A stretch of DNA of 3,140 nucleotides from a virus. Its lineage: Duplodnaviria > Heunggongvirae > Uroviricota > Caudoviricetes. Location: positions 1 through 3,140 of the IMG/VR virus record IMGVR_UViG_2778261511_000014; one strand, 5' to 3'. Both the position numbers and the translations under genes were made by a program. The notes below the pieces were generated by a model. It saw nothing but the letters and a program-made list of their open reading frames with translations. It made no database searches and was not told where the DNA came from. Shown piece by piece: positions 1 to 3,140 of the stretch; within the stretch, counting starts at the first letter, position 1, and every line of letters begins with the position of its first letter.

Positions 1-822
1 GCGACGCCCGTTCGTTACGATGCCCGTTCGGTCAGCACCGGTATTGCCGGACGTAGTCTGACCGCTGACCTGATTGACTGTGCAGCCGAACCGACACAGT
101 TTAACGGACGATCGCTGGTACAGATTGCGCAGGCGCTTGCTGCGCCTTTCGGCATTGAGGTGGTGAACAACGGTGCGCCGTCGGGCGTTATTCCTGATGT
201 CCAGCCTGATCACGGCGAAACGGTGATTGAGGTGATCAACAAAATACTCGGTCAGCAGCAGGCACTGACTTACGACGACCCGCACGGCAGGCTGGTGATT
301 GGCGGTATTGGCTCAACGCGGGCACATACCGCGCTGGTACTCGGGGAAAACATCCTTTCCTGCGATACGGAGAAGAGTATCCAGGAGCGATTTTCTGTTT
401 ACCAGGTGGCGGGGCAGCGTGCCGGAAACGACGATGATTTCGGTGAGGCCACCACCACCGCGCTGCGGGCCCGCACAGAGGACGCATTTATTTCCCGTTA
501 CCGTCCGATGTATATCAGGCAGACAGGGCAGGCCACGGGGGCAGGCTCTGATTTGTATGTATTCAGGCCGGTGGCGCACAAAGTGGATTTTCATATCCGC
601 GTGACGCCGGACACACCGGAAATACGGGCTGCCATCACCGCGGAGTTGCGTTCATTCCTGCTGCGTGATGGTTATCCGCAGGGAGAGCTTAAGGTATCGC
701 GTATCAGTGAAGCGATTTCCGGTGCGAACGGGGAATACAGCCATCAGTTGCTTGCTCCGGCGGACAATATCTCCATTGCAAAAAATGAACTGGCGGTTCT
801 GGGGACGATTTCATGGACGTGA
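1..822 (+). CDS. Phage baseplate assembly protein, baseplate J-like (Mu gp47 / P2 gpJ family); 3' portion only, 5' end lies upstream of the window
   Basis: The frame that starts at position 1 is open with no stop until TGA at 820-822, so the ORF-track start at 160 (a GTG) is only an internal codon and the gene enters from upstream. Composition is GC-rich, as in the neighbouring structural genes. The gene sits directly upstream of, and overlaps by 10 nt, a DUF2313/gpI-like gene, which is the conserved position of the gpJ-like baseplate wedge gene in Mu- and P2-type tail clusters. The family assignment rests on synteny and general character of the translation, not on a recognised motif. Confidence 0.6.
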
Positions 823-1397
823 CAAACGATGATTACATCCGTCTGTTGTCGGCACTGTTGCCCCCTGGTCCGGCGTGGTCAGCCAGCGATCCGGCGATTG
901 CCGGTGCGGCACCGTTATTAACCCGTGCTCATCAGCGTGCGGATGCCCTGATGCGGGAGCTGGATCCGCGCACCACCACCGAACTGATAAACCGCTGGGA
1001 GCGTCTGTGCGGCCTGCCGGATGAATGTATTCCGGCAGGGACGCAGACCCTTCGCCAGCGTCAGCAACGGCTGGATGCGAAGGTTAACCTGGCGGGTGGC
1101 ATCAATGAGGATTTTTACCTTGCGCAGCTTGCTGCCCTGGGCAGACCAGATGCCACCATCACGCGATACGACAAAAGCACGTTCACCTGCTCATCGGCCT
1201 GTACTGACGCGGTGAATGCGCCGGAATGGCGGTATTACTGGCAGATCAACATGCCAGCCGCCACCAACACCACCTGGATGACATGTGGCGATCCCTGTGA
1301 TTCCGCGCTGCGTATCTGGGGTGACACCGTTGTCGAGTGTGTGCTTAACAAACTCTGCCCGTCGCATACCTACGTAATTTTTAAATATCCGGAGTAA
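813..1397 (+). CDS. ymfQ: Phage baseplate/tail protein, DUF2313 family (YmfQ-like; P2 gpI / Mu gp48-like)
   Basis: 194-aa ORF from ATG 813 to TAA 1395-1397. The N-terminus [23 protein letters not shown] carries the Y-x-R-L-L-x-x-LLP-x-G-x-AW signature I associate with DUF2313 proteins. The length matches what I recall for E. coli e14 YmfQ. The start overlaps the stop of the upstream gene (ATGGACGTGA, 813-822), and a weak Shine-Dalgarno-like GGGGA sits at 801-805. Confidence 0.75.
1391..1394 (+). promoter_or_regulatory. Shine-Dalgarno sequence for the tail fibre gene
   Basis: GGAG lies 6 nt upstream of ATG 1401, immediately after the DUF2313 gene coding region and overlapping its stop region. 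Confidence 0.5.
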
Positions 1398-1400
1398 TCC

Positions 1401-2147
1401 ATGCATCGTATAGACACGAAAACCGCGCAGAAGGATAAGTTCGGCGCGGGTAAGAACGGTTTTACCCGTGGTAACCCCCAGACCGGCACGCCTGCCACCG
1501 ATCTGGATGATGACTACTTTGACATGTTGCAGGAAGAGCTTTGTGGCGTGGTGGAGGCATCCGGTGCCAGCCTGGAGAAGGGGCGAAACGACCAGTTGCT
1601 TACCGCGCTTCGTGCTCTGCTGTTAAGCCGCAAGAATCCGTTTGGTGATATCAAATCGGATGGCACGGTGAAAACGGCTCTCGAAAACCTTGGTTTGGGA
1701 GAAGGTGCTCCAGCTATTGGCGTTCCGTTCTTCTGGCCCTCCGCGGCAATGCCAAATACTGTAATCGACAGCTGGTCCGGTATGGTGTTTTTGAAGTTCA
1801 ACGGGGCGAAATTTTCTGCCTCTGATTACCCTGTGCTGGCGAAAGTGTTTCCTTCGCTGGTATTACCTGAAGCCCGCGGTGATTTCATTCGTATCTGGGA
1901 TGACGGGCGAGGTGCAGATGGTGGTCGCGAATTATTAAGCTGGCAGGAAGCTACAAACTTTTCTCAGTTTGCCGGGAATATAGGCGGAGGTGCGGGACAC
2001 GCAATTAACTTTCATGATGGCATCGCCGGAAATCAGCCAGGATTTTCACGATTTAATTTCACCAGTAACTCTGTGGGTGATGGTGTGAGTTTTGTTGCTG
2101 TCAGACCGCGAAATATTACATTTAACTTTCTGGTGAGGGCTAAATAA
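1401..2147 (+). CDS. Short tail fibre protein: N-terminal constant (baseplate-attachment) region fused to a C-terminal variable region with a tail-collar-like receptor-binding domain
   Basis: 248-aa ORF from ATG 1401 to TAA 2145-2147, preceded by GGAG (1391-1394) with a 6-nt spacer. Residues around 110-160 ([44 protein letters not shown]) match the pattern of the phage tail collar domain, in which a Pro/Trp-rich stretch is followed by N-G and Y-P-x-L motifs. A candidate invertase crossover site lies in-frame at codons 93-101 ([10 protein letters not shown]). The gene is followed by a tfa chaperone gene with a TAATG stop/start overlap, as in Mu S-U, P2 H-G and e14 stf-tfa. Confidence 0.8.
1678..1703. 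other. Candidate site-specific DNA inversion crossover site (Hin/Gin/Cin/Pin serine-invertase type) inside the tail fibre gene
   Basis: The sequence is CTCTCGAAAACC-TT-GGTTTGGGAGAA: two 12-bp imperfect inverted half-sites (CTCTCGAAAACC and TTCTCCCAAACC when read inward) flank a 2-bp core TT at 1690-1691. The AAACC-NN-GGTTT centre matches the crossover sites of the gix/hix/cix/pix family as I recall them. It lies about 95 codons into a tail fibre gene, the position where these systems join a constant N-terminus to alternative C-termini. Confidence 0.55.
2135..2139 (+). promoter_or_regulatory. Shine-Dalgarno sequence for tfa, embedded in the 3' end of the fibre gene
   Basis: GAGGG lies 7 nt upstream of ATG 2147. 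The fibre stop and tfa start overlap as TAATG (2145-2149), consistent with translational coupling. Confidence 0.5.
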
Positions 2148-2740
2148 TGAAACCTGTTTTTGATGAAAATGGGCTGGCTACAGTGCCGGGCGATATGCGT
2201 TGTTTTTATTATGATGCTGAAACATCTGAGTATACGGGCTGGTCTGATGAATATATTAATACTGGCGTAAGTATGCCCGCCTGTTCCACTGGTATTGACC
2301 CGGGCGAATACATTCCGGGGAAAGTGGCAGTATTTACGGGTAAGGGATGGAGCCATGAAGAAGACCACCGCAATAAGACTGTTTACTCAATCGAAAATGG
2401 CGCAGCTGTTACAGTGGATTATATCGGTGCCATCAAAGACGGTTATGTCACGATTTCAGCGTTAACGCCATACGATAAATGGGATGGTGAGAAATGGGTG
2501 ACAGACACTGAGGCACAACACAGTGCCGCAGTAGACGCGGCAGAAGCACAGCGCCAGTCACTGATTGATGCAGCAATGGCTTCCATTAGTCTGATTCAGC
2601 TGAAATTACAGGCCGGACGGAAACTGACTCAGGCAGAAACAACCCGACTTAACGCCGTGCTGGATTACATTGACGCGGTGACGGCAACAGATACCAGCAC
2701 CGCGCCGGATGTCATCTGGCCTGAACTGCCGGAGGCGTAG
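2147..2740 (+). CDS. Tail fibre assembly chaperone (Tfa; lambda Tfa / Mu U / P2 gpG family)
   Basis: 197-aa ORF from ATG 2147 to TAG 2738-2740, with GAGGG (2135-2139) 7 nt upstream. The C-terminus LNAVLDYIDAVTATDTSTAPDVIWPELPEA is the hallmark conserved C-terminal motif of Tfa chaperones (lambda Tfa ends ...[13 protein letters not shown]...). Size and position resemble e14 TfaE as far as I recall, but I cannot confirm that identity. Confidence 0.85.
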   Translation: MKPVFDENGLATVPGDMRCFYYDAETSEYTGWSDEYINTGVSMPACSTGIDPGEYIPGKVAVFTGKGWSHEEDHRNKTVYSIENGAAVTVDYIGAIKDGYVTISALTPYDKWDGEKWVTDTEAQHSAAVDAAEAQRQSLIDAAMASISLIQLKLQAGRKLTQAETTRLNAVLDYIDAVTATDTSTAPDVIWPELPEA

Positions 2741-3140
2741 GCCATTCAATATCGGGTGCTGTTGACGTATCAACACGCATCAGCAGCACACGGTATTTCT
2801 TCCATTGGGTGAGAGTTGTAGCTTCTTCATAAGTTGCGATATCAGCATCAACAGCATCCTGACGCCAGGATATTTCACTGTCAGCTTTTTCCCGTAATTG
2901 GGATTTTTTAACTTCAGCAATAGCTATTAATTCCTTTTTGGTCGGCTGAGGAATATCTATCAGTGCTGGTTTTCCATTCAGTGTTCCAATCTGTTTTCCT
3001 GGTGGAATATCCATAAATAACTTTTTATGTTCTTCCTCACTGACTATTACACCATCATCAGGCCACAGACCTGATGCCTCAAATTTTTCTTTCTCCGATA
3101 TGGGGAAAAAGCCATTTGCTTTAGCGCTCCATACGTACAT
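2712..3140 (-). CDS. Second tail fibre assembly chaperone (Tfa family), convergent with the first; the alternative (currently unexpressed-orientation) partner of an invertible fibre module
   Basis: Minus-strand ORF of 142 aa ending at TGA (complement of 2712-2714). The C-terminus [30 protein letters not shown] closely resembles the lambda Tfa C-terminus ([22 protein letters not shown]). The N-terminus [14 protein letters not shown] resembles the typical Tfa N-terminal YSAKxNxFYP motif, so the ATG at 3138-3140 may be the true start; because it sits exactly on the window edge, a longer 5' extension cannot be excluded. The region is AT-rich compared with the left half of the window. Confidence 0.8.
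   Translation of the reverse strand: [142 protein letters not shown]

Follow-up and report, generated by a model that had tools for sequence, protein, structure and literature searches.

A spare convergent tfa gene in an Escherichia coli prophage as the probable chaperone half of an e14-type tail-fibre inversion switch with a truncated invertase

Two tail-fibre assembly (Tfa) chaperone genes face each other at the right end of a 3,140-nt stretch of viral DNA (the window), raising the question of what a second tfa gene is doing on the strand opposite to the fibre gene. The first-pass annotation of the window had predicted another fibre variable region upstream of this gene, on the minus strand beyond position 3140. 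Based on the window, its flanking sequence and its relatives, we propose that the spare tfa gene is very probably the chaperone half of an unjoined cassette in a Din-family inversion switch of the type seen in the P segment of e14. Switches of this kind are well known; the present locus is an allele that had not been characterised, with an orphaned invertase. The anatomy of the switch, its two crossover sites, an intact spare tip and the presence of both orientations in near-identical natural genomes were all observed directly.

The window is an exact match to positions 3-3142 of the contig NLPK01000047.1 (assembly GCA_002230835.1), 8149 bp of which were analysed as locus L015, which makes the sequence to the right of the window available. 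Searching for exact copies of the 248-aa fibre protein led to this contig alone. Complete E. coli genomes aligned to the window with at most 98.2% identity, in every case as two pieces separated by about 2 kb of extra sequence. Relative to the closest relatives of the source contig, an in-frame deletion of 2035 bp fuses the gp44-like and gp47 baseplate genes at positions 531-547, resulting in the loss of gp45 and gp46; this junction is just 530 bp from the end of the contig. An exact-pattern search with this junction (window 510-559) gave 0 matches in genome_contigs, metagenome_contigs and viral_contigs, and in none of the complete E. coli genomes was the junction contiguous. The loss of gp45 and gp46 makes tail assembly unlikely in the source strain; the source prophage is probably unable to build tails, and there may be no virion on which its switch could act.

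Partial baseplate sequence (an ORF at 160-822, + strand) overlaps a gene of the YmfQ/Mu gp48 type (813-1397, +; PF10076 Phage_Mu_Gp48, 8e-26), which lies immediately 5' of the fibre gene and marks the late tail operon reading into the switch. The fibre gene (1401-2147, +) encodes a protein of 248 aa that matched phrog_1858, phrog_3100 and phrog_523 (tail fibre/tail collar fibre) with E values of 1e-60 to 9e-42. Its stop codon overlaps the ATG of the first chaperone gene (TAATG), which encodes Tfa197 (2147-2740, +; PF02413, 1.6e-26; phrog_105, 5e-84). The 248-aa fibre and Tfa197 are the pair joined to the late operon in the captured orientation. This expressed pair belongs to the StfE/TfaE type, and the StfP/TfaP type is represented by the spare pair with its Gp53-like_C tip.

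The spare chaperone gene runs on the minus strand from an ATG at 3140-3138, the last three bases of the window, to a stop codon at 2714-2712, encoding 142 aa (Tfa142; 2712-3140). Its product matched PF02413 (Caudo_TAP) with an E value of 7.4e-32 and 110.7 bits against a cut-off of 22.1, as well as phrog_188 'tail fiber assembly protein' (4.5e-53), and its C-terminal part matched the solved Tfa of Mu (U, 5YVQ_B; 2.3e-5). Tfa142 belongs to the Caudo_TAP family both by this profile match, which includes the conserved C-terminal domain, and by its position after a fibre-tip gene. Both convergent genes encode PF02413 proteins, which agrees with the two facing Tfa genes of the annotation, and their 3' ends overlap by 29 nt (2712-2740). 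In L015 an in-frame TAG is located six codons upstream of the tfa142 ATG, which is the first start codon after it, indicating that the ORF does not extend into a larger, unrelated upstream protein. The gene is intact, and exactly the same Tfa142 protein is found in 341 blocks of public assemblies.

Comparison with K-12 showed that Tfa197 shares 64% overall identity with TfaE, which breaks down into 33.6% in the N-domain and 90 of 90 identical residues at the C-terminus. Tfa142 is 33.6% identical to TfaP, with the last 15 residues identical. Neither protein has high full-length identity to its K-12 counterpart, and by sequence the two pairs are the same classes but different alleles. The published model of Tfa assigns fibre binding to the variable N-domain and trimerisation to the conserved C-domain (PMC9608196); divergent N-domains together with conserved C-domains fit this modular model. 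From this pattern, each Tfa would be predicted to be specific for its own tip. A comparison with U and U' of Mu and P1, also suggested in the annotation, bore out similarity to U (32-43% identity) in the C-terminal ~63 residues, whereas U' gave no significant match. Orthology to these proteins was rejected, as the similarity is confined to the C-terminal domain.

The predicted second variable region is indeed present beyond the right edge of the window. ORF111 (L015 3144-3479, -; 111 aa) ends one base before the tfa142 start codon on the same strand, and the 1-nt spacing recurs in relatives of the contig. The arrangement is mirrored in relatives with the opposite orientation, where tfa142 lies directly 3' of a 194-aa fibre gene. 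Its C-terminal end is a Gp53-like_C fibre-tip domain (PF21882; 26.2 bits, cut-off 24.9); the tip of K-12 StfP scored 58.7 bits against the same profile. The two tips are about 24% identical, though they belong to the same Pfam family. ORF111 lacks the constant N-terminal region of the fibre and instead has its own ATG and a leader, MMPFARYFCIFINVG, which is encoded outside the invertible segment; the leader MMPFARYFCIFINVGFGEG matches the K-12 leader MPFACYFFIFINVGLGEG. In the flipped relatives, the same tip sequence is fused to the constant region, resulting in the 194-aa fibre followed by the 142-aa Tfa. The joined tip (Sv) is about 41-50% identical to K-12 StfE. Sequence searches of the two tips against solved structures gave no significant match, the best being T4 gp37 (E=0.056). 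A simple scan for sigma-70-like promoters found none in L015 1-3800, including the minus-strand ORF111/tfa142 cassette. That the spare ORF is not expressed, as the first-pass annotation had put it, is an assumption; activity has been reported for StfE2, its counterpart in K-12 (PMC12529663).

The unjoined tip and its chaperone are bracketed, together with the joined ones, by two crossover sites in inverted orientation. The left, pix-like site of 26 bp is CTCTCGAAAACC-TT-GGTTTGGGAGAA (1678-1703, +), with its core TT at 1690-1691, and the right site is TTTTCATAAACG-TT-GGTTTTGGAGAA (L015 3451-3426; window-equivalent 3424-3449). The window contains a single copy of the 21-mer AAACCTTGGTTTGGGAGAAGG (1685-1705, +), and a second copy with two mismatches is found on the other strand of L015; the sequence AAACGTTGGTTTTGGAGAAGG is located at L015 3424-3444 on the minus strand. 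Only two copies of the crossover site exist in the 8149 bp of L015 (0 expected by chance), ruling out a shufflon-like system with more than two crossover sites. Both sites fit the 12-2-12 consensus of the Hin/Gin/Cin/Pin family, and both align with pix of e14, gix of Mu and the annotated cixL and cixR of P1. The segment between them is ~1.75 kb long, of which 1692-3140 lies within the window, and it runs about 295 bp past the right edge to reach the right site. Codon 97 of the fibre gene contains the core TT, so residues 1-97 (1401-1691) are constant and residues 98-248 (1692-2147) form the variable tip, which is of the StfE/tail-collar type. Homology to the flipped relatives breaks exactly at 1685-1709.

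If the segment inverts, relatives in the other state should exist, and they do. We denote the orientation of the window, with the 248-aa fibre and Tfa197 joined, as A, and that with the 194-aa fibre and Tfa142 joined as B. At the tRNA-Pro/yejM site, four loci are in orientation A (L003, L005, L009 and L011) and five in orientation B (L004, L007, L008, L010 and L012). Against each of the five B loci, window 1-1709 aligned forward and 1685-3140 in reverse (99.3-99.4%), and the two alignments overlap exactly on a repeat of 25 bp (1685-1709). The 248-aa and 194-aa fibres of the relatives have residues 1-97 in common; among the B loci, L008 is the only one with a called ORF (164 aa) for the unjoined StfE-type tip. 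The left flanks split these prophages into two lineages, and both orientations are present in each, with flanks that are 99.9% identical and a segment that is 99.9-100% identical but inverted. Among complete E. coli genomes, the junction of the constant part with Sv (A) was found in 81 and that with the other tip, Sv' (B), in 21. The strains UTI89 and IHE3034 have 100% identical flanks and an inverted segment of 1939 bp. Both orientations are thus documented in near-identical relatives.

The same comparison locates the exchange. The two sites differ at two positions flanking the core. Between A and B, the outer half-sites stay fixed to their flanks, …AAAACC on the fibre side and …TAAACG on the pin side, and the inner half-sites GGTTTGGG… and GGTTTTGG… travel with the cassettes. 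This swap of partners brackets the exchange to 6 bp including the central TT, the pattern expected if recombination takes place at that dinucleotide.

Next to the right site, the invertase gene that would be expected is only a remnant. The pin remnant (L015 3506-3634, +; 42 aa; PF00239, 37.6 bits) consists of residues 1-41 of PinE followed by T and a stop codon, so that no intact serine invertase adjoins the segment. On the pin side, the DNA is 96% identical to K-12 pinE over 200 nt and then breaks off; the remainder of pin has been replaced by unrelated sequence, with a strong terminator-like hairpin, a GmrSD (DUF262) gene and yejM following in this order. At least 306 complete E. coli genomes carry the truncation junction. 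A single base distinguishes the retained 123 nt of pin from K-12 pinE, and these include the homologous counterpart of the enhancer annotated in P1 cin (+19 to +90), suggesting that the retained stretch may still work as a Fis-bound recombinational enhancer here. As 41 codons of pin provide no catalysis, a Pin-family invertase from another part of the genome would have to do any flipping, and we classify the locus as an orphan, trans-dependent member of the family. The same truncated pin occurs in both orientations with near-identical flanks, as in UTI89 and IHE3034, which argues for inversion after truncation; inversion catalysed in trans after the truncation is the simplest reading. In K-12, not only PinE but also PinQ and PinR, acting in trans, invert the P segment of e14 (PMC12529663), and this segment phase-varies in ordinary cultures (PMC4272514).

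Pin-locus number and orientation were tallied by megablast, which is blind to distant invertases such as PinQ, in ten complete genomes that carry a 100%-identical truncated-pin junction and are not independent of each other. The pin 5' query matched 2-3 places in each of the three B genomes and one place in each of the seven A genomes. Given these limits, no weight is placed on the difference; UTI89 and IHE3034, moreover, are in opposite orientations with only one such place each.

The annotation had also noted a resemblance to the TfaE/TfaP pair of e14, in the opposite orientation to the K-12 reference. The likeness holds for the architecture, the protein family, the crossover sites and the StfE/TfaE-type joined pair. 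Gene order is the same (ymfQ, constant part of the fibre, tip-tfa facing tfa-tip, pin), the constant region is 97% identical to StfP (99/102), and window 531-1708 is 95.6% identical at the DNA level to the jayE-ymfQ-stfP 5' part. A second stretch, window 2462-2774, corresponds to the 3' part of tfaE, in this case on the opposite strand. In addition, the two systems share the crossover half-sites, the 29-nt overlap of the tfa 3' ends, the last 90 residues of Tfa197 and TfaE, the leader of the unjoined ORF, and a Gp53-like_C domain in the spare tip and StfP. The likeness does not extend to the alleles, as the tips are 24-50% and the Tfa N-domains 34% identical. Nor is this the e14 pair itself: the element has tRNA-Pro/yejM as its integration site and GmrSD as its neighbour, in place of icd and mcrA, the identity between Tfa142 and TfaP is no higher than ~34%, and pin is cut to 41 codons compared with the 184 aa of pinE. 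The segment is ~1.75 kb here and 1797 bp in e14, the orientation is opposite to that of the K-12 reference, and the intact relatives are full prophages of ~36 kb, whereas e14 is a 15-kb remnant. K-12 e14 was rejected as the source of the window, since only the two stretches above match at the DNA level and the flanks differ.

Similar to this locus, Mu has the order gp47, gp48, Sc+Sv, U, U', S'v and invertase (gin), and Mu and P1 follow the same logic with crossover sites of the 12-2-12 pattern; the N-terminus of the invertase is 88% conserved at the DNA level among pin, gin and cin. The differences lie in the fibre, which has 248 or 194 aa here compared with 504 aa, in the Tfa proteins, the similarity of which to the Mu and P1 proteins is restricted as described above, in the length of the segment (1.75 kb compared with about 3 kb in Mu and 4.2 kb in P1), and in the lack of a functional invertase in cis.

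Therefore, we propose the following switch, which closes the Mu-like tail operon of a prophage inserted beside tRNA-Pro/yejM in E. coli. The ~1.75-kb segment between the two 26-bp inverted sites holds two convergent cassettes, each consisting of a tip and its own Tfa. In the captured state, the constant residues 1-97 are fused to the StfE-type tip of 151 residues, with Tfa197 after it. Were the segment to invert at the central TT, the constant part would be joined to a Gp53-like tip of 97 residues and to Tfa142, changing the receptor specificity of the fibre. Flipping would be carried out by a Pin-family invertase encoded elsewhere. We infer that the source strain may still switch, although its truncated cis invertase gives no guarantee of this, and, by analogy with known switches, the two tips would be expected to bind different receptors.

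Convergent tfa genes alone are no proof of inversion, and some phages carry two fibre sets, so the spare gene might simply belong to a second, independently expressed fibre/chaperone set on the other strand. This can hardly be the case here, as ORF111 has no constant N-terminal region, the cassettes are framed by a specific inverted repeat of 26 bp and the exact inversion product is present in relatives. A more serious competitor is that the locus was once a switch and is now locked in this strain, leaving the spare tfa and tip as decaying passengers with no present function. The pin gene of 41 codons ending before a hairpin and the GmrSD gene, the gp44::gp47 deletion that takes out gp45 and gp46, and the simple scan that found no sigma-70-like promoter in L015 1-3800 all fit such a relic. 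However, the spare ORF and Tfa142 are intact, with Tfa142 identical to copies in hundreds of assemblies, and the very same truncated pin is found in both orientations with flanks that are 99.9-100% identical. Moreover, the e14 segment has been inverted in trans by other Pin proteins in experiments (PMC12529663), and the 123 nt of pin that are retained cover the region homologous to the P1 cin enhancer. We therefore regard a frozen locus as unlikely, though it deserves more weight than the other alternatives.

The cassette might also have been domesticated by the host for defence, with ORF111 and Tfa142 providing a free Gp53-like tip that masks host receptors and blocks the adsorption of other phages. 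ORF111 is built like StfE2 of K-12, with a matching leader and then a Gp53-like_C tip, and, once the P segment has inverted, StfE2 reportedly blocks the adsorption of T2 (PMC12529663). The orientation of the window is the one that creates an ORF of the StfE2 type, and the truncated-pin cassette adjoins a GmrSD type IV restriction gene and has been kept in 306 complete E. coli genomes. On the other hand, the tip is only ~24% identical to the StfP tip of StfE2, and the published evidence for StfE2 comes from over-expression and docking (PMC12529663). In addition, the scan gave no promoter-like site for the minus-strand cassette, which makes the StfE2-like reading a minority possibility, and we consider host defence rather improbable. 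The same low probability applies to a combination of the two ideas, that the host has retained an orphan switch which is flipped in trans by the invertases of other prophages, with the free tip of ORF111 and Tfa142, as a second StfE2 allele, blocking competing phages. The reading that we prefer remains that of a spare cassette in a switch of the e14 P-segment type.

On this reading, the locus would be a host-range switch of the textbook type for the tail-fibre tip of an E. coli prophage. Its invertase-destroyed version is widespread in E. coli, including the ST95 strains UTI89 and IHE3034, and a destroyed invertase in combination with both orientations implies trans-acting invertases. The orientation of the window creates a structural analogue of StfE2; if the anti-phage claim for StfE2 is true, orphan switches of this kind could be relevant to phage resistance.

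The e14-type switch also appears as a family of cassettes with differing tip and chaperone alleles, common to Mu-tailed and P2-type prophages. The P2-type prophage locus L006 carries the same cassette, 99.2% identical over 1456 nt, between the same flanking sites. It differs from the present locus in having a full-length invertase of 188 aa adjoining the cassette, and its fibre is an H-type protein of 447 aa, the constant part of which is a 350-residue P2 H-type shaft (PF12571) in place of the e14/Mu-like part of 97 residues. A further difference between the two is the outer half-site on the fibre side.

In the source contig NLPK01000047.1, at positions 3506-3725 (366-585 bp beyond the window's right edge), the pin gene for a Din-family serine invertase is cut off after codon 41, and its retained 5' part spans a stretch with homology to the P1 cin enhancer. 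To the right of the truncated gene, the contig carries a hairpin with a 13-bp stem, followed by a GmrSD/DUF262 type IV restriction gene. Of 5426 complete E. coli genomes, 306 share this truncation junction. The orientation of the invertible segment was compared in ten complete genomes, probably clonally related, with a 100% identical junction. Three of the ten have the orientation opposite to that of the window, and each of them contains two to three places matching the pin 5' query; in the other seven, which share the window's orientation, the query matches just one place each. The extra pin-like places hint at inversion in trans, a hint limited by the probable clonal relationship of the genomes.

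A sister cassette is present in the ST95 genomes UTI89 and IHE3034, where a segment of 1939 bp (positions 1561-3499) is oppositely oriented between the two, with flanks 100% identical and the same truncated pin in both. No second PinE-like 5' region was detectable by megablast in either genome, which implies that a more distant invertase would have inverted the segment in trans. The P2-type prophage L006 harbors the same invertible cassette as the window (8656-12085; 99.2% identity over 1456 nt) behind a 447-aa H-type fibre and adjoining an intact 188-aa invertase, and a prophage of this type could also provide an invertase in trans. Evidently, switch cassettes pass as whole units between Mu-tailed and P2-type prophages.

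Within the window, the convergent tfa genes share 29 nt at their 3' ends in antiparallel overlap (2712-2740), so that one stretch of DNA encodes the C-terminal tails of both Tfa proteins. Similarly, tfaP and tfaE of K-12 e14 overlap by 29 nt (5518-5546 of the e14 locus L002).

The plus-strand ORF at 160-822 contains an in-frame deletion joint at 531-547, through which a gp44-like gene for the baseplate hub runs on into the 3' end of the baseplate J/gp47 gene. Compared with the closest relatives, 2035 bp including gp45 and gp46 are absent, and a short imperfect direct repeat is found at the joint, with GGCAGGCT as its exact part. The gp44::gp47 junction had no match elsewhere in the public collections searched, and it calls for some caution, since the source contig ends only 530 bp away.

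A different deletion was observed in the related prophage L011 (11744-12298), where a terminase large-subunit fragment lies directly against the fibre gene and only about 440 bp of normal upstream sequence remains, reminiscent of the chimeric ymfN of K-12 e14. Prophages of this family seem liable to lose internal stretches while keeping the fibre switch. One intact relative, L016 (NZ_CP172111.1 1628000-1657500), a mosaic prophage about 36 kb long, combines lambdoid early genes with an HK97-type head and a Mu-like contractile tail. Among its early genes, yfdN/P/Q/R, ymfL and ymfR are named as in K-12 CPS-53 and e14, and the serum-survival gene iss adjoins its lysis genes.
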